64,000 bases of DNA. Origin: a virus. Where the stretch lies: the IMG/VR virus record IMGVR_UViG_3300035698_011327, positions 1-64,000 of that record. One strand, written 5' to 3'. Made by a program: the position numbers and the translations under genes. Below, one piece after another: positions 2,532 through 46,045 of this stretch (its first letter is position 1; every line of letters begins with the position of its first letter). The notes under the pieces are model-generated. The model was not told the origin of the DNA. It ran no database searches and saw only the letters and a program-made list of their open reading frames with translations.

Positions 2532-2990
2532 ATGTCTAAATTTATTAAGCTACATGGGAAGCGAGACGTTGGTGGGAAAGGGAATCTTGTACTCGTCAAT
2601 GTCAATGCGATAAAACACGTCCTTGTCTCCTATGATAAAAGCAGAGGAGAGTGCTATACAAAAGTAAGAACATCCGATGAAGTAAGCGTTGGAGTGAAAG
2701 AAACAGTCGAAGAAGTGTGGGCGATGTTAAATGATACACCTAATAATGATAACGATGCTCAAAGAGACAGGCTGAGTAGGAGGATGGATGTAGAACAAGA
2801 GAATAATCAGTACGAAGAAGTATCCTTTGATGGTGCGAGCAAGTATGACCATACTACGATCTATCATTTTGGAGGGAGTGAGCTGTTTTACACGGTAGTA
2901 CAAGATGATTATAAGACCGTAACCAAGGCGATAAAGACTGCTATGGGTGAAGAAACTAATGGTAAGCTAACGAGGAGGATGGATAAATGA
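2532..2990 (+). CDS. FlbD/SwrD-like small beta-domain protein with RRxD tags
   Basis: MSKFIKLH...VLVNVNAIKHV...VKETVEEV resembles the FlbD-family pattern; RLSRRMD internal, LTRRMDK at C-terminus. Confidence 0.55.
   Translation: MSKFIKLHGKRDVGGKGNLVLVNVNAIKHVLVSYDKSRGECYTKVRTSDEVSVGVKETVEEVWAMLNDTPNNDNDAQRDRLSRRMDVEQENNQYEEVSFDGASKYDHTTIYHFGGSELFYTVVQDDYKTVTKAIKTAMGEETNGKLTRRMDK
2751..2841 (+). repeat. 91-bp exact duplication (second copy 3650-3740)
   Basis: identical segment encoding NDAQRDRLSRRMDVEQENNQYEEVSFDGAS in two genes. Confidence 0.95.
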
Positions 2991-3220
2991 GGATATCAGA
3001 GACGGAGATGAATACAAAGACTATCGTGATCGGGAGGACTGAGTTTCTTGGAATGATACTTCGCCACATACAATATAAAGGCGTTAAGATACACGAGAAT
3101 GCTGCCGATGAAGTAACTTTTAATTTTAGCGATAGTTCACAAGCCTCTGCTTCTGAGCTTAAGCACGTAGTAGCTTCTTTCAAAGTAGCATCTATTGTCC
3201 GAGATGAAGAGAGCATTTAA
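2987..3220 (+). CDS. hypothetical protein
   Basis: ATGA overlap with previous gene, AGGAGG RBS. Confidence 0.7.
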   Translation: MRISETEMNTKTIVIGRTEFLGMILRHIQYKGVKIHENAADEVTFNFSDSSQASASELKHVVASFKVASIVRDEESI

Positions 3221-3222
3221 TC

Positions 3223-3462
3223 ATGGATACTACCCTTCCTAATATAATGTTCTTGACGTTAAGGAGCATGAGAAAGAGAGTAGGGATAATTTGTAGCAAC
3301 GTATCGTGCTATATTGATAACGTTGATTCTACTACAATTTGCTTTATTGGTGATCGTCAAGATAGCATAATCGTGCTGGAAAAGTTCGATGACATCACCT
3401 TTAAGCTGAGAAAAAGTGGAATCGATACTGCGGGAAGGAGGATGAGGAAGATTGATTGCTGA
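3223..3462 (+). CDS. FlbD-like small protein
   Basis: similar hydrophobic strand pattern ending IIVLEKFDDI; C-terminal RRMRKIDC. Confidence 0.45.
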   Translation: MDTTLPNIMFLTLRSMRKRVGIICSNVSCYIDNVDSTTICFIGDRQDSIIVLEKFDDITFKLRKSGIDTAGRRMRKIDC

Positions 3463-4192
3463 GCCAAAAACGATAGTACTTACGTGGGAAGGTAACGGCA
3501 GCAAGGCGCACGTTCTAATCAATAGCATTGTCTATTATGAAAAGAGCGTATCGGATAAATATACATGCTTATATGTTGTGAATGGGACTAATCTCAGAGT
3601 AAAAGAATATTGCGCTGCTATAACAAGAATGATAGAAGGCACGCCATTGAACGATGCTCAAAGAGACAGGCTGAGTAGGAGGATGGATGTAGAACAAGAG
3701 AATAATCAGTACGAAGAAGTATCCTTTGATGGTGCGAGCACGATTGATAGGTTTGCTACCGAGAATGAAGATCCAAGAGAGCATCTTGATATAAACGATG
3801 TCGAGAATTTTAATGTCGATCCAAACCTCCTCCCCGACGAAGGGCAAACCAATGGTGAGACATTGATCGCAAGGATGGGTAGACTTGAAGATAGATTAGC
3901 CCAAACGACAGACCGTGGCGAACAAAGGCTATTGGCCGATGCGCTTGATAGCGTTAGGGAGGAGATCTCAAGCCGATTTGAAGCCAATGGCTATGATAAC
4001 CCATACCATGCCTTCTCTGCTACTGAAATTGCCAATAGGACTGAAACTGAACTTAGGGCAAGGATGGATATATTACCTAGCCTTGTTCTTGCTGCTGATA
4101 CTGAAGAAGAAGAAATCAGCCTTACTGAGGAGATAGAATTAATTGAAAACGAGTTATTAAGAATGGCGGTCAACGATGATACACCCTTCTAA
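3452..4192 (+). CDS. FlbD-like N-domain plus acidic coiled-coil protein
   Basis: VLINSIVYY...TCLYVVNGTNLRVKE pattern; contains the duplicated RLSRRMD segment. Confidence 0.55.
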   Translation: MIAEPKTIVLTWEGNGSKAHVLINSIVYYEKSVSDKYTCLYVVNGTNLRVKEYCAAITRMIEGTPLNDAQRDRLSRRMDVEQENNQYEEVSFDGASTIDRFATENEDPREHLDINDVENFNVDPNLLPDEGQTNGETLIARMGRLEDRLAQTTDRGEQRLLADALDSVREEISSRFEANGYDNPYHAFSATEIANRTETELRARMDILPSLVLAADTEEEEISLTEEIELIENELLRMAVNDDTPF

Positions 4193-4201
4193 AGGAAACC
4201 A

Positions 4202-4573
4202 ATGAGCATAATACTTGAAGATAGGATGGGACTACCACAGTTAAAGACAATCTCTGGATTCGTCGGTATCTGGAACCTATCAGAGGTATTAAACTTTGCT
4301 ATGATGTGGGGAAATGCTAATAACGTCACCGTCTCACCTCAATCAAAAGACATAAGGAGTGGTGCGTGGGGGTGCTTCGTAGCGATGACCGTTAGGATTA
4401 ACGACGAAATGGTTCAAAGGCAGTACGGACTTATTAAGTCTGCCACTGTTGAGGACTATATAAGCACCCTTATTGACGATGATTTGGTTATAGACAGCGT
4501 CAAAAGATCAAGAAAGCTTACCGTAGGTGAAGATGGGAGATTAAGCAGGAGAATCGATAAGGAGAATCTATGA
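4202..4573 (+). CDS. hypothetical protein with RRxD tag
   Basis: 123-aa ORF ending GRLSRRIDKENL. Confidence 0.7.
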   Translation: MSIILEDRMGLPQLKTISGFVGIWNLSEVLNFAMMWGNANNVTVSPQSKDIRSGAWGCFVAMTVRINDEMVQRQYGLIKSATVEDYISTLIDDDLVIDSVKRSRKLTVGEDGRLSRRIDKENL

Positions 4574-4770: not shown

Positions 4771-4774
4771 TAAA

Positions 4775-4981: not shown

Positions 4982-5128
4982 TACTTCGGATCGGAAAGGC
5001 GTGTAAGTGCCTGGATTTCATGAAAAGTTTCTTATGAGTAGCATAAAATAACCCTTTACTTTCAGTACCTTATATATTATCCTTATATAGTAGAAATATT
5101 ATGTACATAAAGGGGGGGGTGATTCTAA

Positions 5129-5320: not shown

Positions 5321-5359
5321 GCTTAATGAAAAGTTTCTTCTGCCGTCATAAAATAAGCC

Positions 5360-11923: not shown

Positions 11924-11947
11924 CAACTAACCTTGAAAGGAGGAAAG

Positions 11948-13375
11948 GTGAGAAAAGAAATAAAAGCAGAAGCAATCCCAGGCTATCTCGCAGCTGGCTA
12001 CTCTGGCTTTATTATCAAAACAGCAGAGCCGGCAAGAGCAGCGAAGATGCTGAGCGACGCACTTGACGGTGCGAAGCGCAAGGATGGCGAGACCTATTCT
12101 GTAATGGAATGGAACGTCCTTAAAGGCAAGAAGTCATCGCCAATGGATGCGCTTGAAGACTTGACGAGTGAGGCTGGTGACTTTACGTGCGCCATCCTAC
12201 ACAACTTCCACTGGTTCATAGATACTCCTCCTGTTATCCAGAAGATCCAGAACGAAATGGATATCTGGAGGAACCAAGGGAAGGCTTTGATAATCCTGTC
12301 TCCTGAGGCACACCTGCCAATTGAGATCCGTAAGGATTTTATGTCACTTGAGCTTCCGTTGCCTGATGAAGGCGAGATCAGAACTTCTATGAAACATATC
12401 TCTGATTCAGCACGCAAGCCTGATCTTATGAAGGGCGACCTTGAGCCTGTTGTACAAGCAGCAAAGGGCCTTACCCAAACTGAGATTGAAAACGTGCTCG
12501 CCTTGTCGTTTACCTCTAAAGGGTGCTTCGATGTAAAAACAATCAACGAACAGAAGATCCAAACAATTGAAAAGTCTGGGTTGATTGAAGTCCTCAGGAC
12601 TGATAGAAATTACAGCGACATCCTTGGCTACGAGAAAGGCAAGCGCATCGTCTCTAAGATGATCAAGAAACGAACATCTAAAGGCGTGCTATTCGCTGGC
12701 CCTCCCGGTTGTGGCAAGACTCTGTTTATGGAGTGTACCGTTGGTGAGTTTGACAAGATTGGCCTACTTATTAACTTTGGAAGGTTGTATTCAAAGTTCC
12801 AAGGTGAAGGGTCGAACAATGTTGAAGAGATTATCGACGTTATTGAGGCCGTTGGCGATTGCGTTGTCATTATGGATGAGTTTGAAAAGCAGTTCGCAGG
12901 TGCCGGTTCTTCTGGCGATACCGATTCTGGTACAGCCCGAAGGATGACCGGACGGTGGCTCCAGTTTATGCAGGAGAAACCCGAAGGTGTCTATATGATG
13001 GGTACTTGTAACTCATTCAAGGGAATCCCTGATGAATACCTCAGGGTAGGTCGTTGGGATTCAAGCCCCTTCTTCATTGATATGCCTAATGAGTTGGAAA
13101 AACTTGCTATCCTTGACTACTATGTCAACAAACTAAAGCTTGACGTTAGCATTAAAAAAGCTGATCTCCCTAAGATGGAAAAGTGGACTGGTGCTGAAAT
13201 AGAGGGTATGTGCGGTATGTCTATGAACATGGACTGTAGCCTCAAAGAAGCAGCCAATTACATTGTTCCTCAAAACAAAAGGGGATTCGCTGAAGCCGAT
13301 GCTCTCAGAGAGTTCTGTATCGACGCTTCGGATGTCGTTGTCAAAGACGGCAAACGCAGACTCGACGTTGCCTAA
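11948..13375 (+). CDS. Ycf46-like AAA+ ATPase
   Basis: Walker A GPPGCGKT, Walker B VIMDEFEK, SRH-like PDEYLRVGRWD, degenerate N-terminal AAA domain; ends KRRLDVA. Confidence 0.85.
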   Translation: MRKEIKAEAIPGYLAAGYSGFIIKTAEPARAAKMLSDALDGAKRKDGETYSVMEWNVLKGKKSSPMDALEDLTSEAGDFTCAILHNFHWFIDTPPVIQKIQNEMDIWRNQGKALIILSPEAHLPIEIRKDFMSLELPLPDEGEIRTSMKHISDSARKPDLMKGDLEPVVQAAKGLTQTEIENVLALSFTSKGCFDVKTINEQKIQTIEKSGLIEVLRTDRNYSDILGYEKGKRIVSKMIKKRTSKGVLFAGPPGCGKTLFMECTVGEFDKIGLLINFGRLYSKFQGEGSNNVEEIIDVIEAVGDCVVIMDEFEKQFAGAGSSGDTDSGTARRMTGRWLQFMQEKPEGVYMMGTCNSFKGIPDEYLRVGRWDSSPFFIDMPNELEKLAILDYYVNKLKLDVSIKKADLPKMEKWTGAEIEGMCGMSMNMDCSLKEAANYIVPQNKRGFAEADALREFCIDASDVVVKDGKRRLDVA

Positions 13376-14039: not shown

Positions 14040-14240
14040 ATGTCAAGAGTTGAAATCATTTTAGGTGACGATGGGTCAATCAAGTCAGAAGCCTTTGACT
14101 TTAAAGGTGCTACTTGTGAGGCTGCTACACAATTCCTTGATGAGCTATTCGGTGACGCCGACGAAGTGGAACATAAAACGGAGTATTATCTCCGCAATAA
14201 GAACACAGACTTTATCTGCGATAGCGATTGGTGCGGATAA
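14040..14240 (+). CDS. DUF2997-like protein
   Basis: I..DG.I..E...FKG..C..AT.....L.G......K.EYY pattern. Confidence 0.7.
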   Translation: MSRVEIILGDDGSIKSEAFDFKGATCEAATQFLDELFGDADEVEHKTEYYLRNKNTDFICDSDWCG

Positions 14241-14312: not shown

Positions 14313-14386
14313 AAAGCCCTGAGAGTCTTGTAGCGGTAACGCTATGAGGCGGTACTTGCTACCGCAGACAACTCTCAGGGTTTTTT
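14313..14386 (+). ncRNA. structured three-way-junction leader RNA upstream of HNH gene (copy A)
   Basis: P1/P2/P3 stems covary with copy B at 25117-25190; promoter TTTACT-N17-TATAGT at 14247-14275. Confidence 0.65.
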
Positions 14387-14400
14387 ATTTAGGGAGTGCT

Positions 14401-14880
14401 ATGATGAAGAGGAAACCTAGAAAATATTGTGAATGTGGGTGCGGCGAAATAGTGAACCAAGGTATGAGATACCTATTTGGACACAACAGGATAGGAAAAT
14501 CAAATGCTGGAAATAAACACCCAATGTGGGGGAAGAAACACAAGCCAGAATCGAAAAGACAAATGTCTATATCGAGATCTGGGGCTAACAACCCTAATTG
14601 GAAAGGTGGAAAAACTTGGGAAACATACTGCCCAATATGGTTTACACCTGAATTCAAAGAGATGGTGAAAGAAAGGGATGGGCATAAATGTATGAACCCT
14701 TTGTGTAAAGGTCCTAGCAAAAGACTCGCAATACACCATATAGACTATGATAAGAAAAATTGTAGCCCGTTGAATCTAATATCAATCTGTAATTCTTGTA
14801 ATGCTAGAGCAAATTTCAACAGATCATTTTGGCAAGAACACTATAAAAACATAATAAGGGAGGTGGTAATGAATGAGTAA
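14401..14880 (+). CDS. HNH homing endonuclease with NUMOD3-like repeats
   Basis: CECGCG, HPMWGKKH..ESK..MS, NPNWKGG, HHIDYDKKNC...NLISICNSCN; RBS favours 14401. Confidence 0.85.
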   Translation: MMKRKPRKYCECGCGEIVNQGMRYLFGHNRIGKSNAGNKHPMWGKKHKPESKRQMSISRSGANNPNWKGGKTWETYCPIWFTPEFKEMVKERDGHKCMNPLCKGPSKRLAIHHIDYDKKNCSPLNLISICNSCNARANFNRSFWQEHYKNIIREVVMNE

Positions 14881-15094
14881 AAAGCTGCCAAAACTCTTTA
14901 AAGAGTATGGCGAAATGCACTCTGAGGGGATAATCTCAATCGAGAATGTCCCCGCCAGAGTATCCGTTGGAGACTTAGGCATACAAATTGCTAAGGATGG
15001 TCGAGTATGGATATGTATAGATGGAGTGGCCTTCTTAAGATTTATGCCTAAGTCAAAATACAAAAAGTATAATGAACAGGAGGTGGTAAAATGA
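14873..15094 (+). CDS. hypothetical protein
   Basis: overlapping start with strong RBS. Confidence 0.7.
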   Translation: MSKKLPKLFKEYGEMHSEGIISIENVPARVSVGDLGIQIAKDGRVWICIDGVAFLRFMPKSKYKKYNEQEVVK

Positions 15095-15972
15095 CAGAGC
15101 AGAAGACAGATAACCTTTACAGTGGTGGATGTTTAATCATCATCACCACTCGCTTCTGGGGAGCTACGAAAAAGATTGATCAAGACCAGCTCGGTGATCT
15201 TCCGAAGGAAATCGTCAGAGCTTCAAGAGACTTGCTATTAAGGACAGACAAGATCGAAGCGGTCAGAGGTATCCTTGGCGAGGCAAAGAGATTTGTCAAG
15301 TCGAACACCATGGACTTCCCGATACCGTCTGTTGATTTTATCAGCAAGAATCGGATAAGCTTTGTTGATGAAGGACTCCAAAGCAGGAAGGAATGGGCAG
15401 AAGGTGCGCTTGAAGATGTAATCGATGCGCTTGAACAGTTGAAAGCAGAGTATCAGGCCAAGTACCCCGATATGTACTCTGAAGCCAACTACCCTACTCC
15501 AATCCAGTTGAGGGATAACTTCACGTTCGAATGGAAGTTCCGAACGATCAGTCCTCCAGGTAAGGAGCTGGGTATCTTGACCCCTGAGATTTACGATAGG
15601 GCAAGGGCATCTTTTGATCATGATATGAAAGAATTTCAAGACGGATTAATTTCTGCCGTTGCGAAAGACTTTTATGACCGGATTGATAAGCTCAAGGCTC
15701 AATGCTTTGGGGGCGATATCTCTGCCTCAACAGTAAAGTCTATCAATAAAGTCCTTGAAAAATTCGATACCGTCTATGACGGGTGTATTGCTCACGAAGG
15801 ACTCAAGGAAATGATCGATGACGTCAAGCTCTACATGGGAGGAACGGACGCAAATATGCTTAAAGCAGACGATGGCTTAAGGTCTATGGTTGGCAAGAAG
15901 ATGAAGGAAGTCACTTCCTTGATCGTCAACTCAAAAGACAAAAGGCTTACACGTAGGCTTGATATAGCATAG
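15091..15972 (+). CDS. helical phage protein (DUF3150-like) with RRxD tag
   Basis: 293-aa helical ORF with YP....L...F.F.W pattern; ends KRLTRRLDIA. Confidence 0.5.
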   Translation: MTEQKTDNLYSGGCLIIITTRFWGATKKIDQDQLGDLPKEIVRASRDLLLRTDKIEAVRGILGEAKRFVKSNTMDFPIPSVDFISKNRISFVDEGLQSRKEWAEGALEDVIDALEQLKAEYQAKYPDMYSEANYPTPIQLRDNFTFEWKFRTISPPGKELGILTPEIYDRARASFDHDMKEFQDGLISAVAKDFYDRIDKLKAQCFGGDISASTVKSINKVLEKFDTVYDGCIAHEGLKEMIDDVKLYMGGTDANMLKADDGLRSMVGKKMKEVTSLIVNSKDKRLTRRLDIA

Positions 15973-18247: not shown

Positions 18248-18610
18248 ATGTCTCACGTAAGTCAATACAAGATCAAAGTTGGCGACCTTGACTGTCTTAA
18301 GAAAGTGCTTGAAGAGAAGGGCATTGAGTACAGAGACGAAGAAGGCACCAAGGCAAAGCAGTATGGATCTAACAGAATCCCTTGTGCGTTGGCGTTCAAA
18401 TTGCCTGGATGGGGTTACGAGTGTGCCGTTCAAGAAGATGGTCAAATATCGTATGACCATTTTGGTAGCCAACCTAACACGAAACACCTGTTAGGCGAAA
18501 CTATCAGAGACTCAAACAAAGAAGCGGTAATGGAAAAAGTTTGGATGCTCGGAAAGAATTGGTGGGAAGAGAAAGTCGATAACGGACTCAAGATAGTCAT
18601 CGAGTTCTAA
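18248..18610 (+). CDS. DUF1257/Ycf35-like protein
   Basis: MSH......I.D...L...L...G pattern; RBS favours 18248. Confidence 0.7.
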   Translation: MSHVSQYKIKVGDLDCLKKVLEEKGIEYRDEEGTKAKQYGSNRIPCALAFKLPGWGYECAVQEDGQISYDHFGSQPNTKHLLGETIRDSNKEAVMEKVWMLGKNWWEEKVDNGLKIVIEF

Positions 18611-18785
18611 AAAAGACTGCCAAGCGTTAAATTCGGGAATGAAAAGTCTTAAGGTATAGGTAGGTATAGGGTAAACTGTCTGCGTCGATTGTACACGTGT
18701 ATACGCTCTTTGTAGAGCGTGAATAGGTCTATTCTATATCCTACTTCTACCGGAAACCAGATAATTAGGCTAAAAGGAGGTGGTT

Positions 18786-19214
18786 ATGACGGAGCCAAAA
18801 AGAGTCAGAGGCATTAAACGCCTAGTTGACAGAGGGTTCAAGCTTAATAGCAAAATCAAAATGCTTAACAATGAGCTTGATGGCATTAAAGCTGATATCA
18901 AAAGGCACGCAAAAGCAACTATCCAAAATAATCTTTCTGGTTATGAGGCTAGGGTTGTTGTATCAGATAAACGCATAAATATTATCAAGCCGATGGATGT
19001 TTGGAAACTTCTCAAAAGGAATATGAGTGATTTTCAAAGAGTCGTTAGTATCAAAGTTGGTTTGTTAAGGGATCTTGTTGGGAGTGAGGCTGTTGATAAG
19101 ATAACAAAATCTTCTTTGGAAGAGTTTTTCTCTGTTAGATTCTATGGCCTTGATGAAAAAGAGGATGATACAGACTCTGGTAGACCAAGTAGAAGGATGG
19201 ATACAGAGGCTTAA
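18786..19214 (+). CDS. coiled-coil hypothetical protein with RRxD tag
   Basis: ends GRPSRRMDTEA. Confidence 0.7.
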   Translation: MTEPKRVRGIKRLVDRGFKLNSKIKMLNNELDGIKADIKRHAKATIQNNLSGYEARVVVSDKRINIIKPMDVWKLLKRNMSDFQRVVSIKVGLLRDLVGSEAVDKITKSSLEEFFSVRFYGLDEKEDDTDSGRPSRRMDTEA

Positions 19215-19883: not shown

Positions 19884-19982
19884 GCGTTGGAAAAGAGTCA
19901 GGTATCTCTGTAGGCAAGCAAGGTACGATGAAGCGTCACGCCTTGTAAAAAAGATTGAAAGAGATTGGGGGAGAAACTACTA

Positions 19983-26580: not shown

Positions 26581-26618
26581 TCACATTTTATAAACCACAA
26601 TCTATGAAAGGAGCAACT

Positions 26619-28409: not shown

Positions 28410-28431
28410 CGGGGTCACCTTCGGGTGACCC
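28410..28431 (+). terminator. UUCG-tetraloop hairpin
   Basis: GGGGTCACC-TTCG-GGTGACCCC perfect stem; no U-tract on the + strand. Confidence 0.55.
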
Positions 28432-28445
28432 CTAAAGGGGCTTAC

Positions 28446-31118: not shown

Positions 31119-31868
31119 ATGGCGAAGAAACTGTATGAACTGTTAGCAACAGAAAGCGAATTGGCAGGGGTATTCAAGAATATTATAACCGAGACAGGGA
31201 CTAATTTCTTGAAGAAAGCAGATCGGTACACTGGGTACCATACAGAAGTCAAATATTTTGACGAGAGTGCTCCAAGAGAAGCAGATACTCACGTTAAAGT
31301 AGACGATACTGTTCCAAGTAAGCTTGCTTATACAGCTGGTCACATTACAGCGTATCTTGACGCCGTATTACAGAAAGAGTCTGCTAACCAAAAAGCCATG
31401 GCTGACGTCGTAATTGACGGCGTGGTTATAGCAACTGATGTACCAGCGACATTCCTTCTTGGGCTTGAAACTAAGTTAAAGAAAGTAAGGGACGAAGTGT
31501 ATGCGAAGATCCCTACATTACAACCCAGTATCCACTGGGATGTAGATACGAACGAGATGGAAGGTGTCTTCAAAAAGAGAGACTCTGATGAGAAATTCAG
31601 AACGAAGAAGATGATGAAGAACCATGTCCGTGCTGCCGCTACCGACAAACATCCTGCTCAAGTCGATGTCTATAATGAGGATGAGAAGATAGCAAGAATC
31701 GTTACGGATACCTGGTGTGGGATGATCTCTTCTGCTGAGAAGTCAAGGCTTTTGAATAAGGTCGATGCTTTAATCAGAGCAGTAAAGACCGCAAGGCAGA
31801 GAGCTAATTCTGTAAAGGTCGATGATGTGAAAATTGGCGAGAAACTTTTTGGTTTTATTAATTCATAA
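31119..31868 (+). CDS. coiled-coil protein of unknown function followed by a structured RNA
   Basis: 249 aa; VPATFLLGLE, ATDKHPAQV, AVKTARQRAN; strong RBS. Confidence 0.75.
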   Translation: MAKKLYELLATESELAGVFKNIITETGTNFLKKADRYTGYHTEVKYFDESAPREADTHVKVDDTVPSKLAYTAGHITAYLDAVLQKESANQKAMADVVIDGVVIATDVPATFLLGLETKLKKVRDEVYAKIPTLQPSIHWDVDTNEMEGVFKKRDSDEKFRTKKMMKNHVRAAATDKHPAQVDVYNEDEKIARIVTDTWCGMISSAEKSRLLNKVDALIRAVKTARQRANSVKVDDVKIGEKLFGFINS

Positions 31869-36374: not shown

Positions 36375-36677
36375 ATGATAGTTAACGGGAAAGAATATCC
36401 TCTATGGAGTCAATTTATAGAGAAAAAAGCAGACTTCATAGGGAAGAAACTTGTTTCTATTGATGAGGGTCAAGAAGCACAGACAATAGTGACAGATCTA
36501 ACATTAGAACCAAATGGTAAAGACTCTGCCATGTTCCGAGTACACGGCAAAGATTTCAATTGCGGTTTCGATGTTCATCATGGTGGTATATCTGGAGATG
36601 CTGAAGGAGTAGAACAAGGCTATATATCATTTTCATCTACATACTGTGGGACGTTTAGGATATACCATGCTAAATAA
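36375..36677 (+). CDS. hypothetical protein
   Basis: AAGGAG RBS, 100 aa. Confidence 0.7.
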   Translation: MIVNGKEYPLWSQFIEKKADFIGKKLVSIDEGQEAQTIVTDLTLEPNGKDSAMFRVHGKDFNCGFDVHHGGISGDAEGVEQGYISFSSTYCGTFRIYHAK

Positions 36678-39600
36678 AGATTTTTGTCACTTACATCTCC
36701 ATACACAATATTCACTTCTAGACGGTTTTGGCACAGCGGCTATGTATGCCAAAAGAGCATCTGAGTTAGGGTTTACTCATATGGCTATCACTGATCATGG
36801 AGGGGTTGATGGTGTTATAGAATTTCAAAAAGCCTGTAAAGAAGAAGGGATCAAAAGCATTATAGGCTGCGAGGGGTACATCGTACCTGATATTTCTGTT
36901 AAAGAGAAAGAAAAGAAGTACCACATTACACTACTTGTTAAGAATGAAGTAGGCTGGAAAAATCTCCTTCAGCTTCTTACCATAGCAAACATCCAAGGGT
37001 TCTACTATAAGCCACGGTTCGATCCACAAACCCTTCTAGACTATTGCGAAGGGCTTGTTGTGATGAGTGCGTGCGCTTCTACTTTCCTTAATATGGGGAA
37101 CGTAATTGAAAAACCCTCTAGACCTGCAAGGGGCAGAAGATTAGACATGGCCCCAACTTTAGATACGATGGGCATAGACTTGATGCTACAGCTTAAAGAG
37201 AGAACCGATGTAGCGATAGAGATCATGCCTCTTGATCTTAAAGAGCAGATAGAAGTGAACAAGATGTCGATAGAGATAGCTAAAGAGAATGATATAATGC
37301 TCGTTGCTACTAACGACTGTCATTATCCTTTGGCTGAGCACTCTAAGCTTCAAGAAGTTCTGCTATGTATGCAAACCAAATCAAAATGGTCTAACCCTGA
37401 TAGGTGGAAATTTGATATAGACGATCTATATCTAAAGACGGCTGATGAGATGATAGATTCGTTCGCTGAACAAGGCGTAGTTAGTCGTGAGGATGTCGGA
37501 GTAGCATTATTGAATACAATGACTATAGCGGAGCTATGTGACTTCGAAATAGAAGCAAGAGAACCAAACTTGCCCAGAGTCCACGTATCTAAGTATCCAG
37601 ATTTCAGCGAAGATGACCAGATTATAAGACTTGTCCTTGATGGCTTGGATAGCAGGGCTGAAGATCACGAGTGGATAAAGAACGATATAGCAGCATATCA
37701 AGAAAGAATAGAAGAAGAACTTGAGCAGATTATGCCAAAGTTCACAAGATACTTTCTTGTCGTGTGGGAGCTTGTACATTGGTGTGAAAAAGAGAAAATA
37801 ATGGTGGGGCCGGGGCGTGGATCTAGTGGAGGTTGCTTAGTTGCTTACTGCTTAGGGATAACGGACGTTGACCCTTTAAAGTACGACCTTGTATTCTCAA
37901 GGTTCATATCTCCAGGCAGAATCGATTTACCTGATATTGATATGGACTTCGAAGATAGAAGGCGAGAGGATGTCAAGAAGCATCTTGCCGATATCTACGG
38001 GAAGTGGAACGTCATAGAAGTCTCTACCTTCCTGAAAATGCACGGTAGAGGAGCAATAAGAGACGTCAGCAGAGTTTTCGATATACCATTATACGAAGTG
38101 AAGAAAGCAGCAGAATGTATCGTTACAAGATCGGGTGGTGATGTTCGGGCTGACTTTTCTATCGAAGATGCCTTCAACACATTTGAAGATGGGATAGCCT
38201 TTAAAGCAAAATACCCAGAAGTGACTAAGATGGCTATGTCTTTTGAAGGACAGATAAAATCTGCTGGTAGACATGCCGCAGCTACGTGCGTATCAGAGAC
38301 AGACTTAAGGTTAGGAGAAAATGCTAATTTTGTAGTCAGGAATAAAAAGAATGTCTGTAACTGGGCCAAAGAAGATGCTGAATATATGGGCCTAATGAAG
38401 CTTGATATATTAGGGCTGAACTCTTTGACGATCTTGAGTGAAACAAAAGACCTTGTTAAGGATAGGCACGGGATAAATATAAACTACAATCTCATAGACT
38501 TGGACGATGAGAGATTGTATGTAGAGTTCATAGCTGGGAATACGATAGGCATATTCCAGTTTAGCTCTAATAGCATGATGAAGTTATGTCGAGATATCAA
38601 AGGAGATTGTTTCGATGAAGTTGTAGCCCTCAATGCCCTTCATAGGCCTGGTGCTCTACGAAGTGGTTTTACGCAAATATATAGAGATCGTAAATTTGGC
38701 GCTCAAGACGTTGAGTATGCCCACCCGTGGATAGAAGGGATAACCAAGGATACCCAAGGTCTGATCATCTATCAAGAGCAAGCGATGCGCTTGATGTATG
38801 AGCTCGGTGGACTTACTTGGAAGACCGCAGACACTATCCGTAAGGTAATCAGTAAATCGAAGGGCGTTGAGGAATTCATGAAGTTCGAACAGCAATTTAT
38901 AGATGGCTGTAAAGAACGGGATACCCTTAATAAAGCAGAAGCTATGATAGTTTTCGGTGAGCTTAAGAATATGGGCAGCTATAGTTTTAATAAGTGTTTA
39001 CGGGGGGTTACGTCCCTTATAAGATCTGCTGCCGGGAAGCATAGCAAAAAACAAGAGATAACTGTTGAAGAATTATACAAGAGATGGAACTCTAAAGCTC
39101 AAGTAGGGACAAAATACAGAGACCCAAAAAGGGGTCTAAAGATTATGCAAGTTGATCCTGATGGCAGAGTAAGGCCAGCAAAAATAAAGGCTATCCACAG
39201 GAACGGAACAAGAAGGACAATAGCAAGGATAACGACTGAGTCTGGCAAGCAGATAGACGCTACGATGAATCATAGGTTCCTCACAGATAAAGGATACGTT
39301 TTGGTTGGAGAGCTTAAAGTTGGCGATCTTATGGCTATAATGGGAGAAAAAGAAGAACATATTAAAAAGGGAGAGCCGCACAACCAAAAAACTACATATG
39401 ATGGATGTGGATTTCAAAAGGGAAAAGATAACATATCTTATATAGATGGCAGAGCTAAATATTTCAAAGAAGGGAAGAAAGCAGTAATAAAAAGAGCAGA
39501 TGGGAAATGTGAAAATTGTAAAATAGAGATAGAGGGTGTGTGTGAATGCTGCCACCAGAAAATAAAATATGGTAGGCCTGAGATAGCCCACATTGAAAAT

Positions 39601-41289
39601 ATAGAGCAATGCGATTTTGATTATTCTATTTATCACTCACATAAAAATTTAAAATATTTGTGTAACCCGTGTCATAAAAAACTTGATTATAAAAAAGGTG
39701 AAAGAAAAGTAAGGCACTCTATTGGTAAACCAGTAGCACTTGATCCTATAACGTCGATAGAGATAGTTAAATGTGGAGAATATGTTTACGATGTAGAGAT
39801 GGATACAGAGCAACACAACTTTATAGCAAACGGATTTGTATCTCACAATAGCCACGCTGTCGAGTACGGAATGATAGCAGTCTGGATGATGTACTTAAAG
39901 ATAAACTATCCAGTCGAATTTATGGCAACTCTTTTATCTTATGGGCCGGCTGGAAAGAAACACGAGCTTATAAATGAAGCCAAAAGATTGGGTGTCAATA
40001 TACTCTTACCTGATATTAATCTTTCTACAGCTAAAAAGTGGAAGATTGACGACGATGGCAATCTACTGTCACCGTTCTTAGAGATTAAGGGTATAGGGGA
40101 GGTAGCCGCAACCGAGATCATTCGTTGCAGAGACGATGCAGGCCCTTACAAAAGCCCTTCCGACCTAGAGTCTAGAGTCCCTAAGAGAAAAGTCAATGTA
40201 AAAGTCCGTAGGCTACTAGAAGAAACAAAAGCATATGAGTCTCCTGAGAGTAAAACTTTCTTACCTGAAGAGGAACTTGAAGCCTTATCTCAATATTTCG
40301 ATTTCGAATTATCAAATGATCCTTTATATAGGTTTAGAGGGATATTCAAAATCCTCGACCAGAGCCTTGGGTTCATCAACCTTTGCGATTCTATTCCGAT
40401 GGGGAATGAGCTTGGATATTATTATGGTAGGATGGAAAGTCTAAAGGTTGGGTATAGGCAAGCCGTTAAGCAGACGAGCAACAGTAGCGACTTTGGCTCT
40501 CTTGGTGGAGTATACGGCCACCTTAAAGACGATACAGATTTCAAGATGCTTATCTTTGGTAACCAGATTTACGATGAGAAGAAAAGTATAGTAGAGCATT
40601 GTGAAGGGCAAGCCATAATAACTCTTGCTAATAACACGGATGATAAAGAAGCCTTGAAGACTCAGGCTGCTTGGTTTAGCGACGAACTCACGTCAGGTAA
40701 TCTTGAGGGTTTAGATGCTAAACTCGGCAAAGAAAGCGAACCTCCGGCAGATTTAAGCATCATCAACGATTGCGATGCTTGTGAGTTACGTGAAGAATGT
40801 GAGCGGCCAACCTTCCCTAAGCAAGGCGAATGTAACATAATGATAGTTGGAGAGATGCCAACTAAAGCAGACAATGATAGCGGGTATGTTTTCTGCGGTA
40901 GGCCAGCAGAAGTCCTATTCAGAAAGCTGGATAGCTATGGCCTAGACAGGGAGATGTTCTATCTTACGAACGTCATAAAATGCTGGCCAAGTAGAACCAA
41001 AAAGCCTAAAAAGAAACACGTCAATGCTTGTAAAAGAATTTTATCTGAAGAGATAGCAGTAGCAAAACCATTCTTGGTCCTGTCTCTTGGTAATCTCGGT
41101 AGGCAGTTCTTTGATGGAGAAGAAGCCGGCATCATTGCTGTAAACGGAACAACTAAATGGAATATGGATCATAACTGCTGGGTAACATATTCTATAAGCC
41201 CGTCAATGGTAGCATATAGTGAAGAGAATATGCCGCTACTTGACGCCTCAATAGCAGAATTTGCTAACAAGGTATCTATTTTATTCTGA
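36667..41289 (+). CDS. dnaE: DNA polymerase III alpha subunit with intein and C-terminal family-4 UDG-like domain
   Basis: HLHLHTQYSLLDG (PHP), GPGRGSSGG, PDIDMDF, KLDILGL, FNK-intein-SH; C-terminal GEMP, LTNVIKCWP, LSLG. Confidence 0.95.
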   Translation: MLNKDFCHLHLHTQYSLLDGFGTAAMYAKRASELGFTHMAITDHGGVDGVIEFQKACKEEGIKSIIGCEGYIVPDISVKEKEKKYHITLLVKNEVGWKNLLQLLTIANIQGFYYKPRFDPQTLLDYCEGLVVMSACASTFLNMGNVIEKPSRPARGRRLDMAPTLDTMGIDLMLQLKERTDVAIEIMPLDLKEQIEVNKMSIEIAKENDIMLVATNDCHYPLAEHSKLQEVLLCMQTKSKWSNPDRWKFDIDDLYLKTADEMIDSFAEQGVVSREDVGVALLNTMTIAELCDFEIEAREPNLPRVHVSKYPDFSEDDQIIRLVLDGLDSRAEDHEWIKNDIAAYQERIEEELEQIMPKFTRYFLVVWELVHWCEKEKIMVGPGRGSSGGCLVAYCLGITDVDPLKYDLVFSRFISPGRIDLPDIDMDFEDRRREDVKKHLADIYGKWNVIEVSTFLKMHGRGAIRDVSRVFDIPLYEVKKAAECIVTRSGGDVRADFSIEDAFNTFEDGIAFKAKYPEVTKMAMSFEGQIKSAGRHAAATCVSETDLRLGENANFVVRNKKNVCNWAKEDAEYMGLMKLDILGLNSLTILSETKDLVKDRHGININYNLIDLDDERLYVEFIAGNTIGIFQFSSNSMMKLCRDIKGDCFDEVVALNALHRPGALRSGFTQIYRDRKFGAQDVEYAHPWIEGITKDTQGLIIYQEQAMRLMYELGGLTWKTADTIRKVISKSKGVEEFMKFEQQFIDGCKERDTLNKAEAMIVFGELKNMGSYSFNKCLRGVTSLIRSAAGKHSKKQEITVEELYKRWNSKAQVGTKYRDPKRGLKIMQVDPDGRVRPAKIKAIHRNGTRRTIARITTESGKQIDATMNHRFLTDKGYVLVGELKVGDLMAIMGEKEEHIKKGEPHNQKTTYDGCGFQKGKDNISYIDGRAKYFKEGKKAVIKRADGKCENCKIEIEGVCECCHQKIKYGRPEIAHIENIEQCDFDYSIYHSHKNLKYLCNPCHKKLDYKKGERKVRHSIGKPVALDPITSIEIVKCGEYVYDVEMDTEQHNFIANGFVSHNSHAVEYGMIAVWMMYLKINYPVEFMATLLSYGPAGKKHELINEAKRLGVNILLPDINLSTAKKWKIDDDGNLLSPFLEIKGIGEVAATEIIRCRDDAGPYKSPSDLESRVPKRKVNVKVRRLLEETKAYESPESKTFLPEEELEALSQYFDFELSNDPLYRFRGIFKILDQSLGFINLCDSIPMGNELGYYYGRMESLKVGYRQAVKQTSNSSDFGSLGGVYGHLKDDTDFKMLIFGNQIYDEKKSIVEHCEGQAIITLANNTDDKEALKTQAAWFSDELTSGNLEGLDAKLGKESEPPADLSIINDCDACELREECERPTFPKQGECNIMIVGEMPTKADNDSGYVFCGRPAEVLFRKLDSYGLDREMFYLTNVIKCWPSRTKKPKKKHVNACKRILSEEIAVAKPFLVLSLGNLGRQFFDGEEAGIIAVNGTTKWNMDHNCWVTYSISPSMVAYSEENMPLLDASIAEFANKVSILF
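38995..39849 (+). mobile_element. 285-aa intein with HNH-type endonuclease in DnaE
   Basis: begins CLRG after FNK, block-B TMNHRF, ends VYDVEM...HNFIANGFVSHN before Ser; internal CENC...EIAHI...NLKYLCNPCH. Confidence 0.9.
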
Positions 41290-41339: not shown

Positions 41340-41816
41340 ATGCCAATAATTGATGAGTCAATAATAATAGACCGCAACAACCTGGATGAAGAGTGCGCTT
41401 CTGCTCCTGCCTTTTTTGATTATTGGCAGACCCAAGAGACGGACGCAAAAACAAGAAAAGAGAACCTTGAATCTCAAATGAGTATGGAGCTCAGAGGGAT
41501 GGCTGAAGAAGTCCTTATGAGTAGGTTTGGGGTAAAGAAACTTACAGAGGGGGCGATCAATTCAATCATCGGCAGCGACGAAAACTTCCAGCAGTTAAAA
41601 TCTCAACAGCTTGGAGCAGAAGCAGAAAGGAAATCATTCGAACAAAAGATTAGAATGCTCGACGTGTTGGCCAGGTTACATGGCCAAGGCTACTTCTCAA
41701 AAATAGAGTCGAAGCCTAACATGAGAACAATTATAGCGAACAAAGTAAAGAAGGAGATTGAAAAGCAGATTAAGAGCAGAAAAACATCTGGAAAGCCACG
41801 GAGACCAAGGACTTAA
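41340..41816 (+). CDS. UvsY-like helical recombination mediator (tentative)
   Basis: helical 158 aa, TEGAINSII motif, positioned before the SSB and recA genes. Confidence 0.4.
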   Translation: MPIIDESIIIDRNNLDEECASAPAFFDYWQTQETDAKTRKENLESQMSMELRGMAEEVLMSRFGVKKLTEGAINSIIGSDENFQQLKSQQLGAEAERKSFEQKIRMLDVLARLHGQGYFSKIESKPNMRTIIANKVKKEIEKQIKSRKTSGKPRRPRT

Positions 41817-41950
41817 GATTTTGGAATCATTTCTGATTAAAACATTTATAGTGACAGCAATAATCTGCTTCTTAGCTTATTTTATTCCAGGCATATCGTT
41901 GAGAGCCATAAGGGATTTTAAGAAGCGTTACATAGATAAGGAGAACTGAC

Positions 41951-43066
41951 ATGGCAAAGAGGGAGTTTCAACCAGGGCTAGGAAGCAAAGCCCTCAAGAA
42001 AAAAGATGAGAAGAAAGGGCAGTACTACAAAAGCCCAGGTTCCCGCATCTCCTATATTAAGCAAGGTGTGATGAGAGTATTCATCCCTAAAGAAGGGAAG
42101 AATAGGCTGAGGATTATTCAGCCATTTGAACTCGCTGCTCTTGGCTTCTATGGGTTGGAGATGAGCTTCCACCGAAACGTAGGCGATGAGGGAGAAGAAC
42201 TACACGGTGATTACTTGTGCAATGAGAGGATGAAGATTCCTCTTAGAGATTGCTACGAGGACATAAAGGTTCCTAATAAGTGTTTCGTCTGCGAACAGCA
42301 GACACCTGAGCTTTGGGATGCGAATCCTGATCTCGCTAAAACATTCTACCCTGACCGGAGAATGTGGTTCTTTGTCCACGATCTTCTTTCAGACGATAAA
42401 GAAGAAGTTTTGCTTTGGAGCTGCCCTTGGACTCTTCACGAAGAAATTCTTTCAAGATCATCAGACGAAGAAACTGGCGCATACATAGATGTATCCGATC
42501 CTGTTAAAGGCGTTCCGATTTCTTTTGAAAGAGACGGCAAAGGCAAGATGACGAGATACAAAAATGTCCAAGTGTTTAAGGCTGCTCATCCTCTTGATCC
42601 AAAAGTTCTTGATGATATGGTAGAGTTTCGTGAGCTTCTTATAGTCCCAGAATACGATGCTGTAAAGGCTGCGTTTGAATGCTCTGAGGACTACGAGCCA
42701 GCTGAAGGTGGAGAAGAGCCAGCTGAACAAGAACCAGAAGAGAAAGAACCAGAATCGGAACCAGAAGGGCCGCCAGAATGCTTCCAGAAGGAGTTTGACG
42801 AATGGCAGGATTGCGTAGATTGCGAATACGCTGGCGACTGCGAAAATCCTCCAGAGCCTGAACCGGAACCAGAGCCTGAACCAGAAAAACCTGTAAGGCC
42901 GAAACGACCCAAGCGACCAGTCAAACCAGAAAAGCCATCAAAGCCAGAACGTCCGACAAGAAAGTCAAGGACGCAACCGGAAGAAAAAGCCAACGGCAAA
43001 TCTGAAGCTGCTAGGTCAGCGATTAGAGAACGCATAGCAAAAGCAACGGAAGATAGGGATAAATAA
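41951..43066 (+). CDS. single-stranded DNA-binding protein (T4 gp32-like)
   Basis: KEGKNRLRII, H...C...C..C zinc ligands, GKGKMTRY, acidic then Pro/Lys-rich tail. Confidence 0.7.
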   Translation: MAKREFQPGLGSKALKKKDEKKGQYYKSPGSRISYIKQGVMRVFIPKEGKNRLRIIQPFELAALGFYGLEMSFHRNVGDEGEELHGDYLCNERMKIPLRDCYEDIKVPNKCFVCEQQTPELWDANPDLAKTFYPDRRMWFFVHDLLSDDKEEVLLWSCPWTLHEEILSRSSDEETGAYIDVSDPVKGVPISFERDGKGKMTRYKNVQVFKAAHPLDPKVLDDMVEFRELLIVPEYDAVKAAFECSEDYEPAEGGEEPAEQEPEEKEPESEPEGPPECFQKEFDEWQDCVDCEYAGDCENPPEPEPEPEPEPEKPVRPKRPKRPVKPEKPSKPERPTRKSRTQPEEKANGKSEAARSAIRERIAKATEDRDK

Positions 43067-44145
43067 TGGCAGATAGAGTGAGGAGAAGTGTTCAGGTAGA
43101 TGACGAACACCCTGTTGACTTTATCACATCAGGTTCTACTGTTCTTAACCTTGCCCTTTCGCAAAGGGGCTTAGATGGTGGATGGGCAAGGGGTAGGATA
43201 GACAACCTAGTTGGGGACGGCAGCAGTGGAAAGACGCTTTGTGCTCTTGAAGCTGCTGCCCATGCGTTCTATTTTATGGAAGGAAACGATAGCCATAATT
43301 TCCCTAAAGTCAAGAAGGTCACTATTGTCTACAATAATGTTGAAGGCGTTATGGACTTCCCAATCGACACGATGTATGGCAAGAAATTTAACGCTGGCGT
43401 TGAGTGGATGAGAACAGGTACCATACAAGCCTTTGGGAGAGATTTTCTTAATAGGCTAAAAGCACTTAAGTCTGGTGAGTTTCTACTTTATATAATCGAT
43501 AGTTGGGATGCGCTTGATTCTGATGAAGAGCTTGAGGAATTTATAAAATCAGTTGAAGAAGACAAGGCGATGGAAGGGTCATTTGATCTTGGAAAGCAAA
43601 GATATGGATCAAAAAGATTTTTCAAGACTTTATGCTCTAAGATGGAAGGCGGGAATGGTAGAGTCCATAAAGATTGTACCTTGCTTATCGTATCTCAGAC
43701 TAGAGCGAATATAGGTGTAAAATTTGGAGCTGCTAAAGTGCGAGTTGGAGGAGATGCTCTAAACTTTTATACTCATCAAGTAGCTTGGTTGAGAGAGCAC
43801 GAGAAGATAAGAAAGACCAGAGAAAAGATAAGCATGGTCACTGGAATTGGGTGTGAGGCAAAGGTAAAGCGAAATAAAGCAGCAAAGCCTTTTAGAGAAG
43901 CCAGATTCCCTATCATGTTTGACTATGGGATAGACGATATCTCATCTATGATCCATTATCTTTATGGCCCGAAATCTAAAGCCATAAAAGATTTATTTGA
44001 TCTCAAGTTCAAGAAATATGAATCTGCTATAAAGTATGCTTATGATAACGACAAGCAGGCAGAGCTTGTTAAGCTTACGGAAGAAAAATGGAAAAGAGTT
44101 GAAGACGCTGCTAAATTTTCCCAGAAAAGCAGGTTCCCGATATGA
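43066..44145 (+). CDS. recA: RecA/UvsX-like recombinase
   Basis: SGSTVLNLAL, GDGSSGKT, YIIDSWDAL, SQTRANIG, GGDALNFY. Confidence 0.9.
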   Translation: MADRVRRSVQVDDEHPVDFITSGSTVLNLALSQRGLDGGWARGRIDNLVGDGSSGKTLCALEAAAHAFYFMEGNDSHNFPKVKKVTIVYNNVEGVMDFPIDTMYGKKFNAGVEWMRTGTIQAFGRDFLNRLKALKSGEFLLYIIDSWDALDSDEELEEFIKSVEEDKAMEGSFDLGKQRYGSKRFFKTLCSKMEGGNGRVHKDCTLLIVSQTRANIGVKFGAAKVRVGGDALNFYTHQVAWLREHEKIRKTREKISMVTGIGCEAKVKRNKAAKPFREARFPIMFDYGIDDISSMIHYLYGPKSKAIKDLFDLKFKKYESAIKYAYDNDKQAELVKLTEEKWKRVEDAAKFSQKSRFPI

Positions 44146-44996
44146 AGGCGTTAGTCATAGACTGTAACTATATCTGCCATGCTACATTTCATTCTATGCC
44201 AATTTTATCGTTCAAGAATAGCACTACATCTATAGTCTACGGTTTTGTGAAAAGAGTCATATCCTTTGCTGAAAGGTTTGAGCCAGATAGCATAGTCTTT
44301 GTATGGGATTCAAAAAGCTCAATAAGAAAAGAAGTCTATCCAGATTACAAAAAGCCACGTATAAAGGCGGGGAAGGAAGCAAGTACAAAAGAGAAAGAAG
44401 CGAAGTCTGTCGCTTACAACCAGTTCGATGAGATTCGCCTTAATACTCTCCCAAGCCTAGGCTTTAACAATGTATTCGTACAAGATGGATACGAAGGCGA
44501 TGACTTAATGGCGGCTGCTGTAAATTGTAACCCAGGATATGAATTCGTAGTCATAACTACAGATAAGGACATGTACCAGATAATAGACGATAACTGTATG
44601 CTCTTTAATCCTATGACGAAGATCATCAGGGACAAGAAATGGTTCGTCGATGAGTTTGGATGCCACCCTCTAGCTTGGGGATATGCTAAGGCGATATCAG
44701 GATGCTCTACAGATAATGTGACTGGTCTTAAAGGGGTAGCTGAGCCAACGGCTTTGAAATTCTTAACAGGAAAGCTTAGCAAGTCGTCAAAGAAATACGA
44801 AAAGATCGAAAATTATTTCCCGACTGCCTTAGAAAACAGGGAGCTTGTTGTACTTCCTATGTACGGTACGATGGACATAGACATAGTAGAAGATGCTCCA
44901 AGCGTCAGATCGTTTAAAAGCGTATGTGAGTCTTATGGATTCAAATCACTTCTTAGTGCAAATATGGTGAACAAATGGTTAAACCACATATGCTAA
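44142..44996 (+). CDS. 5'-3' exonuclease / flap endonuclease
   Basis: VIDCN, RKEVYPDYK, YEGDD, TDKDMYQ, DNVTGLKGV. Confidence 0.9.
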   Translation: MKALVIDCNYICHATFHSMPILSFKNSTTSIVYGFVKRVISFAERFEPDSIVFVWDSKSSIRKEVYPDYKKPRIKAGKEASTKEKEAKSVAYNQFDEIRLNTLPSLGFNNVFVQDGYEGDDLMAAAVNCNPGYEFVVITTDKDMYQIIDDNCMLFNPMTKIIRDKKWFVDEFGCHPLAWGYAKAISGCSTDNVTGLKGVAEPTALKFLTGKLSKSSKKYEKIENYFPTALENRELVVLPMYGTMDIDIVEDAPSVRSFKSVCESYGFKSLLSANMVNKWLNHIC

Positions 44997-45334
44997 ATGC
45001 TGGCAGGACGACTCACGAGATGTGTCCTGGCGATATAAAAGCAAGAAAAGGCAAATGGAAGATATCGATAGACTATGCCTTAAAGCCTGACTATGAGCTA
45101 CTCATGTTCTTCGCCCACTTTGTCATAATAAGAGCAGAAGCGATTCTGTCTAGCGATTGCGTCGAATACGAAGGGTACTCGCACCTTTTTGATCCAGTTA
45201 AAGACTATTCTGAAGTGCCGGAATATCATTTTACTCTAACAAAGAAAGTGGACGGCAACCTTGATATCATAGCTATAAAAGATAATGAACCTCTTCCAAA
45301 AAAGCCAAGGCTCACAAGAAGGATCGACGGATAA
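44975..45334 (+). CDS. hypothetical protein with RRxD tag
   Basis: ends PRLTRRIDG. Confidence 0.7.
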   Translation: MVKPHMLNAGRTTHEMCPGDIKARKGKWKISIDYALKPDYELLMFFAHFVIIRAEAILSSDCVEYEGYSHLFDPVKDYSEVPEYHFTLTKKVDGNLDIIAIKDNEPLPKKPRLTRRIDG

Positions 45335-45579
45335 TGCTCAGCTACGGCGGCAAAGCTAAGATTTCAATCGATGGTGTAGAAATTGACGGATTTGTTTCTA
45401 ATTGGACTATGAGTCAAGGGATGATAGAGGTTTCAGAATTTAGTGGGACAATGGAGATGATTCCAGATGGGCTTGCTAATTTACATATAGAGTTTGAAGC
45501 AAAAATAAGTGAACCTGAAGCTAAAATCCAGCTTGGTATTGAACCTAAAGAAAGACTGCTGAGAAAGATTGATGGGTGA
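45334..45579 (+). CDS. hypothetical protein with RKxD tag
   Basis: ends ERLLRKIDG; TAATG coupling. Confidence 0.7.
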   Translation: MLSYGGKAKISIDGVEIDGFVSNWTMSQGMIEVSEFSGTMEMIPDGLANLHIEFEAKISEPEAKIQLGIEPKERLLRKIDG

Positions 45580-46045
45580 CATTTTAACAGGAGTAGTAAT
45601 CGTGTCTATATTTAGTGCGATTGGAATACTTACAAAGATGATTGGTGGACTCGCTTCTAAAAAAGATATGGATAAAATACCGCCTAATGAGATAATCCTT
45701 TATGAAGAAGAGATAGAATCCCTTAGAATGGAAATAGCTGAGGAGGCTGATAGAGCAATGGAAGCGCCAAGTGGTCCACCTTTTTCACAAGTGACTCTAC
45801 CTGACGGAATGATACTACCTGTTGCGAATACCGTTGAGATAACATATGGCTATGAATCTCCTCCAAATCATACACAGGTGATGCAGATGGGCACTTCTTA
45901 TGCTGGATCAGACGGAATAAATATATTCCCAACTGTAAATGGGATGAGAAGTAGATTGATGCCACAGAAAGTCAAAGAAGTGAAAGTTGAAAGTCCATTT
46001 AGCAAAGTAAACACGGAAAGAAAATCAAGGAGAATTGATTCATGA
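45569..46045 (+). CDS. membrane-anchored protein with RRxD tag
   Basis: N-terminal TM helix; ends ERKSRRIDS. Confidence 0.7.
   Translation: MMGDILTGVVIVSIFSAIGILTKMIGGLASKKDMDKIPPNEIILYEEEIESLRMEIAEEADRAMEAPSGPPFSQVTLPDGMILPVANTVEITYGYESPPNHTQVMQMGTSYAGSDGINIFPTVNGMRSRLMPQKVKEVKVESPFSKVNTERKSRRIDS

Follow-up and report, generated by a model that had tools for sequence, protein, structure and literature searches.

The stretch of DNA analyzed here (the window) corresponds to positions 1 to 64,000 of the uncultured virus record IMGVR_UViG_3300035698_011327, the whole record being 76,292 bp long with a CheckV completeness of 78%. Its G+C content is about 42%. Early, replication and recombination genes occupy the + strand up to about 51.5 kb, and the virion genes that follow lie on the - strand. 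We analyzed a short peptide, R-[RK]-[ILM]-D, which recurs as a C-terminal tag on nine + strand open reading frames (ORFs), among them those of an AAA+ ATPase and of a DUF3150 protein. The tagged ORFs, together with one untagged paralog and two uncertain members, are the following (terminal sequences are given up to the stop codon; aa, amino acids):

2532-2990, + strand: early ORF, 152 aa, with the end KLTRRMDK (2973-2984) and an internal RLSRRMDV (2778-2789); no Pfam or PHROGs family
3223-3462, + strand: early ORF, 79 aa, with the end RRMRKIDC (3445-3456)
3452-4192, + strand: paralog of ORF 2532-2990, 246 aa, with an internal RLSRRMDV (3677-3688) located in a 98-nt repeat; no C-terminal tag
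4202-4573, + strand: early ORF, 123 aa, with the end RLSRRIDKENL (4547-4558)
11933-13375, + strand: predicted Cdc48-like AAA+ ATPase (PF00004), 480 aa, with a degenerate D1-like domain, an active AAA domain and the tail GKRRLDVA (tag codons 13355-13366, CGC AGA CTC GAC)
15091-15972, + strand: DUF3150 protein by transitive homology to PF11348, 293 aa, with the tail RLTRRLDIA (tag codons 15952-15963, CGT AGG CTT GAT); no coupled gene downstream
18780-19214, + strand: ORF, 144 aa, with the end RPSRRMDTEA (19191-19202); no coupled gene downstream
37135-37146, + strand: internal RRLD (RGRRLDM) in the DnaE-like polymerase (ORF 36646-41289); uncertain member
41758-41949, + strand: small membrane ORF with the end KKRYIDKEN, found in a relaxed scan; possible tenth tag, uncertain
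44975-45334, + strand: ORF, 119 aa, with the end RLTRRIDG (45317-45328)
45334-45579, + strand: ORF, 81 aa, weak paralog of ORF 44975-45334, with the end RLLRKIDG (45562-45573)
45569-46045, + strand: ORF, 158 aa, with a hydrophobic helix at the N terminus and the end RKSRRIDS (46028-46039)

A C-terminal tag enriched on unrelated proteins

We scanned the window in six frames for R[RK][ILMV]D and found 16 sites. The scan returned exactly the nine C termini that a preliminary description of this DNA had listed (ORFs ending at 2990, 3462, 4573, 13375, 15972, 19214, 45334, 45579 and 46045), with the tag located 1 to 4 codons ahead of the stop. The wider form of the tag in this phage is [RK]-[LPM]-x-R-[RK]-[ILM]-D. 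As had also been stated, none of the - strand virion genes ends in the motif, the sole site on this strand being internal (59653). Nine C-terminal tags were thus observed among 112 genes, where 0.04 would be expected given the overall composition, 0.10 given that of the tails and 0.13 at the rate seen for internal sites (Poisson P ~2e-14). Shuffling, the control that had been proposed for this enrichment, pointed in the same direction: none of 20,000 within-tail shuffles reached nine tags, and the maximum was 3.

The carriers are mostly unrelated, as the preliminary description had claimed, but its count of about ten proteins did not stand. Indeed, ORFs 2532-2990 and 3452-4192 are paralogs and ORFs 44975-45334 and 45334-45579 are weak paralogs (E=2e-4), so that the carriers represent about eight independent families. 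Outside these two pairs, the carriers are alike in their tails only, and apart from the ATPase and the DUF3150 protein none could be assigned to a Pfam or PHROGs family. The three internal copies reported previously are present at 2778, 3677 and 37135. The first two sit in a direct repeat of 98 nt (2751-2848 and 3650-3747, 97% identical) within the paralogous early genes, the remainder of which share only ~52% protein identity, and because of this they count as one event; the repeat looks like a recent gene conversion around the internal tag. The DnaE copy is found in an insertion of ~20 residues that is missing from both close relatives of this phage. As for the possible tenth tag, the KKRYIDKEN tail of ORF 41758-41949 was not found in the orthologs of this protein.

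The tag belongs, judging from its homologs, to a conserved four-gene module

The preliminary description had missed one piece of context. As far as sequence comparison can tell, the tag did not arise in this genome but is ancestral, being the tail found in a conserved module that encodes the AAA+ ATPase, a DUF2997 protein, a DUF1257-like protein and the DUF3150 protein. The two untagged members of the module in the window are the following:

14040-14240, + strand: small DUF2997 protein (PF11211), 66 aa, with an invariant Cys26 and a C-terminal Cys-Gly
18248-18610, + strand: putative divergent DUF1257 (Ycf35-like) protein, 120 aa, with an invariant N-terminal Met-Ser-His and YDHFGS

The ATPase matched PF00004 with an E value of 5e-16 and 59.7 bits (cut-off 21.2). 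Its profile matches fall in the PAN/CDC48/CdvC/FtsH subfamilies, and GPPGCGKT and DEFEK are invariant in the family. The structural model of the ATPase aligned over ~520 columns to the D1-D2 tandems of p97/Cdc48, AFG2 and Rix7 (E ~1e-17 to 1e-18, TMq 0.6-0.66), which suggests that its first half is a degenerate AAA-fold domain and not a separate N domain; the consensus of this first domain has no Walker A motif. On the strength of these matches and this model, we assign the protein to the classic clade of AAA+ ATPases as a predicted two-domain enzyme of the Cdc48/p97-like type. It does not qualify as Cdc48/p97 proper, since TIGR01243 gave 50 bits against a cut-off of 803 and matched the second domain only, the protein has only 480 aa, and the N domain is absent.

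The tail of the ATPase is widely conserved. About 73 of 93 homologs, down to ~40% identity, end in [RK]-x-[ILMVF]-[DE], mostly as KR[KR][ILM]D[VIAT], and the tail residue R475 is invariant in 66 homologs although the preceding 10 to 20 residues are not alignable. In the AlphaFold models of the ATPase (pLDDT 88 overall, below 50 in the tail) and of the DUF3150 protein (pLDDT 93, tail disordered), the last 10 to 12 residues are unstructured, which fits a linear motif on a flexible tail. Docking of the tails in cis onto the body of their own protein was considered as well, and it was not seen in the AlphaFold monomers of either protein. As a side observation, an intein (PF14890) is inserted in the ATPase homologs P0158, P0169 and P0230, one of which also contains an HNH domain.

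On its own, the DUF3150 protein of the window matched PF11348 with an E value of only 0.0011 and 18.8 bits, under the cut-off of 24.9 bits. PF11348 was, however, matched by 41 of 46 aligned homologs (best E=7.5e-16), and the nearest Atlas clusters carry it too; by this transitive homology ORF 15091-15972 is assigned to the family. The representative library contains 716 relatives, most of which end in R-x-[LI]-D-[ILF]; only four positions are nearly invariant, and the tail residue R288 is among them. Concerning the fold, Foldseek returned nothing at E<=0.001, VIA-align only generic four-helix-bundle matches (Z<=9.6) and a PDB sequence search only designed bundles, and tblastn against GenBank phages gave no match.

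The DUF2997 protein scored 31.2 bits against PF11211 (cut-off 24.1, E=2e-7). The assignment of the 120-aa protein is less direct. The PF06868 profile matched none of 16 members of its family and nothing in the genome, whereas the 30 Atlas clusters nearest by features carry PF06868 (score 0.93; in the three best, 34-49% of the members), as does the first match by structure (TM 0.81), the second one being named DUF1257. Based on these feature and model comparisons, we treat this protein as a putative divergent Ycf35-like protein. PDB sequence searches with the DUF1257-like and DUF2997 families returned nothing.

These genes are linked. Among 21 IMG/VR loci found with the ATPase, the ATPase and DUF3150 genes lie 1-2 kb apart in 20, and in 15 loci both proteins end in the tail; the consensus of the tail that the two families share is K-R-[KR]-[LI]-D-[IVLF]-COOH. 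The two untagged partners were found by clustering all ORFs of the ATPase loci: the DUF2997 gene lies beside the ATPase gene in 21 of 22 loci, and the DUF1257-like protein is conserved in 21. The module occurs in hundreds of uncultured phages as well as in cultured Aeromonas phage HJ05 and Rhizobium phage L338C, both of which have the same gene order, and in cluster O mycobacteriophages. We found no publication on it, DUF3150, DUF2997 and DUF1257 being mentioned in passing only. In loci L023-L039 the gene after DUF3150 (e.g. L027:4451-5005) encodes a Cys-rich protein of ~170 aa with a purely basic variant of the tail (KKRKIRRR, KLKRRNKK) and is followed by genes for an SNF2/DEAD helicase and a Toprim primase; BLAST found no counterpart of this Cys-rich gene in the window.

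Conservation of the tag at the protein level

The tag could be a by-product of Shine-Dalgarno sequences, read as Arg-Arg, and of paralogy, in which case the peptide itself would have no role. Coupling to the following gene is seen for six or seven of the nine tagged genes. Furthermore, about five tags, and not two as first counted, are placed such that their AGG AGG, AGG AGA or AGA AGG codons form the Shine-Dalgarno sequence of the next gene, 2-11 nt before its start codon; this is the case for the AGG AGG at 2973-2984, which serves ORF 2987-3220. The two paralogous pairs described above would add to the count. In contrast, 32 coupled genes have no tag, and three tags do not lie on any ribosome-binding site: those of the ORFs ending at 15972 and 19214 have no coupled gene, and the one ending at 13375 is upstream of a separate AGGAGG. 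Two of these three are written with CGC or CGT codons, in line with the earlier remark that some tags use codons unrelated to a Shine-Dalgarno sequence. In addition, distant homologs have the same peptide with other codons and other neighbors, and a Shine-Dalgarno sequence does not account for the [ILM]-D half of the tag or for the R-L-[ST] that precedes it. An origin from ribosome-binding sites and paralogy alone is already contradicted by these observations, and we regard it as extremely improbable.

Selection on the peptide itself, which the preliminary description had proposed, is well supported by the close relatives. These are two IMG/VR contigs (loci L001 and L003 on one, L002 on the other), with protein identities of 22-66%. 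The core of the tag was kept in 8 of 8 orthologous or positional pairs across this whole range of identity, while its four codons differ by 1-6 nt. The small tagged proteins have drifted to 22-37% identity outside the tag. Their counterparts nevertheless end in recognizable tags: RLLRKLDV for ORF 18780-19214 (L001), RLLRKLDG for ORF 44975-45334 (L003 and L002), KLTRKMDRNDN for ORF 45334-45579 (L002), and RPSRKLDE (L003) and RMQRKMDTDD (L002) for the positional equivalents of ORF 45569-46045. On a larger scale, the anchor arginine is invariant or nearly so in hundreds of distant homologs. The extra tags are confined to the close relatives with the module expansion. More distant contigs, which have only the UvsX-like recombinase in common with the window, carry no tags, and the records searched for them, including one at 90% completeness, gave no full-length ATPase homolog.

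A proposed docking function and a candidate receptor

We consider it likely that the tag is a short linear docking motif which directs its carriers to one common site tied to the ATPase module. One shared partner is the most economical reading of a selected, flexible peptide on unrelated proteins, and we infer that a single receptor exists and that it is encoded by the phage. Of the earlier proposal of a docking or sorting code recruiting diverse proteins to one partner, the shared, selected peptide on unrelated proteins stood, and the partner and the outcome (docking, degradation or localization) are proposals only. According to our proposal, the tag would be this clade's spelling of the conserved tail on the ATPase and DUF3150, and all carriers would be addressed to one site belonging to, or working with, an ATP-driven protein-remodeling machine. 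In this lineage, the tail would have been copied to about six more families, namely to those of early proteins, of a small membrane protein and of small products of the recombination cluster, and the newly tagged proteins might be clients, adaptors or regulators of the same machine.

A first indication of where such a site may lie came from covariation. ATPases with the tail Asp nearly always have R-K-D-G at residues 49-52, and those with Lys, Asn, Arg, Gln or Val in its place almost never do. In a set enlarged to 141 ATPase sequences, and on a tree from which these columns had been left out, K50 came first (5.4:0) and R49 second (4.6:0.3, both of 11 pairs) when the 187 variable columns were ranked by phylogenetically independent concordance with the tail Asp. 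The corresponding raw 2x2 tables of loop residue versus tail Asp were 102/5/5/29 for K50 and 94/13/2/32 for R49, and positions 44, 51 and 55 of the same loop were among the top 15 columns. The first, D1-like domain of the ATPase, near the basic loop R49-K50-D51-G52, is our leading but weak candidate for the receptor, and we put it forward with corresponding reserve. A co-fold of ATPase residues 1-465 with the DUF1257-like and DUF2997 proteins and DUF3150 residues 255-293 scored 0.00, to which we give no weight either way. ORF 26604-28091 (495 aa) was rejected as a receptor, since it is absent from the tag-bearing relative G001 (66% complete); its label as a Ro60/TROVE-vWA protein was not backed by any Pfam or NCBIfam match at E<=0.01.

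Several observations weigh against docking on a site of the ATPase module. The partner of the tag is still a candidate only. The association between loop and tail concerns the ATPase's own tail only, and even with 141 sequences it is not significant (sign test p ~0.06-0.125 before correcting for 187 columns). Moreover, in L034, L035 and L040 neither the basic loop nor the tail Asp is left in the ATPase, whereas DUF3150 of the same phage still has KRK[IL]DI, so that the link may reflect the ATPase contacting its own tail rather than a general receptor. The extra tags of the window clade do not have the terminal hydrophobic residue of the ancestral tail and, because of this, might not use the same site. 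The tags that double as ribosome-binding sites are subject to an extra constraint at the DNA level. Finally, the internal sites amount to one repeat event and one lineage-specific DnaE insertion and are weak evidence.

Alternatively, the tag might dock its carriers not on a phage protein but on a conserved hub of the host, for example the ribosome, RNA polymerase, the sliding clamp or a protease of the Clp/Lon type. This would agree with the fact that, beyond the four module genes, no gene is detectably common to all tag-bearing phages, and the early proteins among the carriers would suit a takeover of the host. However, the tails of HJ05 and L338C have other spellings (e.g. RRAIR, RRITI and RKLKL in HJ05) that are alike within each phage. 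A spelling that differs between phages but is shared within a phage argues for a co-evolving receptor encoded by the phage, and fits a universal host site less well. As for the clamp in particular, which had been named as one option in the preliminary description, no DNA_pol3_beta gene was found in the genome while control profiles were, and the tag does not fit the consensus of the bacterial beta-clamp-binding motif (QL[SD]LF or QxxLxxF), no tag having a Gln or a terminal Phe. We judge a host hub, its clamp version included, to be unlikely.

The tag could also act as a degron or processing signal, with the AAA+ unfoldase or an allied protease removing or cutting the carriers at a set time. 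The ATPase belongs to a type (PAN/Cdc48/FtsH) that is known for protein unfolding, and several carriers are small early proteins. In addition, an active site could conceivably be formed in the DUF1257-like partner by its invariant N-terminal Ser-His together with an Asp-His pair. Nevertheless, the ATPase and its constant partner DUF3150 are themselves tagged in nearly all lineages, which would be odd for a pure destruction signal, and no protease domain was detected in the module. We hold such a signal to be rather improbable, and it overlaps with docking in that it also needs one shared receptor.

If the carriers do dock on the ATPase module, one could speculate further that the module is a private address-tag system of the phage, in which a Cdc48-like unfoldase module reads the C-terminal peptide, possibly via the R49-K50 loop, and in which each lineage re-spells the peptide and copies it to a varying set of its own proteins. 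We advance this extension only tentatively and consider it doubtful at present; if true, it would give the virus an evolvable means by which its own proteins are recruited, remodeled or removed at a set time.

Comparison with known systems points to a similar principle. HbYX tails on PAN, Rpt and Cdc48, and the GQYL tail common to mycobacterial Mpa and Bpa, dock proteasome activators. By analogy, the shared C-terminal docking tail of unrelated proteasome activators would be the closest known principle, as there too a short flexible peptide of a PAN/Cdc48-type ATPase is found on an unrelated protein and one site serves both. Unlike those tails, the tag has an Arg anchor followed by a hydrophobic residue and Asp, without a penultimate Tyr, 1 to 4 residues from the C terminus; no proteasome-like core is detectable here, and the tag has spread to many further proteins. 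The tag is not itself an HbYX motif, since none of the tails contains a Tyr and the spacing to the C terminus is variable. The C-terminal tail of HslU, which ends in LSRFIL, inserts into HslV and activates it; it likewise is an AAA+ tail that combines an Arg with alternating hydrophobic residues and binds to a partner ring, but HslU belongs to a different AAA+ clade, and no HslV-like Ntn hydrolase was found here. T7 gp2.5 and gp4 share their tails, and several T4 proteins have clamp-binding C termini, so that several phage proteins compete, by one C-terminal peptide, for a single hub site on DNA polymerase or the clamp. Those peptides resemble the tag in this distribution; their sequences either are acidic and end in an aromatic residue or belong to the PIP/LDFL type, whereas the tag is basic with a hydrophobic residue and an Asp. 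The MIT domain of Vps4 binds MIM helices at the C termini of ESCRT-III proteins; Vps4 is an AAA+ protein of the same broad clade that reads Leu/Arg-rich C-terminal peptides on many clients, while the phage ATPase has no MIT domain, appears to have a D1-like AAA fold in its N-terminal half and carries the peptide itself. Likenesses to the c-Myc nuclear localization signal, to the C-terminal peptide of FtsZ and to the twin-arginine signal were also considered and set aside. Replisomes, proteasomes and ESCRT are organized by shared docking peptides, and no such code has been described for this module.

The Ycf46/Ycf35/DUF2997 set of cyanobacteria and plastids links the same three families, the DUF1257 member of the phage set being a putative one, and the ATPase homologs are named in their source as the SpoVK/Ycf46/Vps4 family. 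In comparison, DUF3150 and the shared tail are additions of the phage module; at the far end of the ATPase homologs, the three most distant ones, including one named Ycf46, have no such tag at their C termini. A duf2997-ycf35 cluster has been recorded (PMC4284462). These cellular cousins have long lacked an assigned function. With its ten residues and its invariant Arg, the peptide could serve as a bait for the receptor and as a marker by which clients are listed in any phage genome; it might also be usable as a portable tag.

Several further genes of the window deserve mention. The recombination cluster (41340-46512) encodes a UvsY-like mediator, a 371-aa protein without assignment, a UvsX-like recombinase, an Mre11/SbcD-type exonuclease, the three tagged small ORFs and a RuvC-like resolvase. 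Three ORFs of the homing-endonuclease type (NUMOD3, HNH) are spread over the module and the recombination cluster (14344-14880, 46482-47213 and 48924-49490), and one such ORF parts the SbcC-like gene (47210-48307) from the genes downstream. The DnaE gene gave no match to GenBank phages by megablast. The remaining assigned features are the following:

19965-20366: YspA/SLOG-family protein, score below cut-off
22268-22828: sigma-70 region-2 protein
28425-29225: ThyX
31119-31868: DUF7873 protein, 229 bits

Finally, ORF 25207-25974 (255 aa) matches the middle part only of adenylosuccinate synthetase (PF00709 positions 188-277, E=5e-16) and may be a fragment or a PurZ-like remnant.

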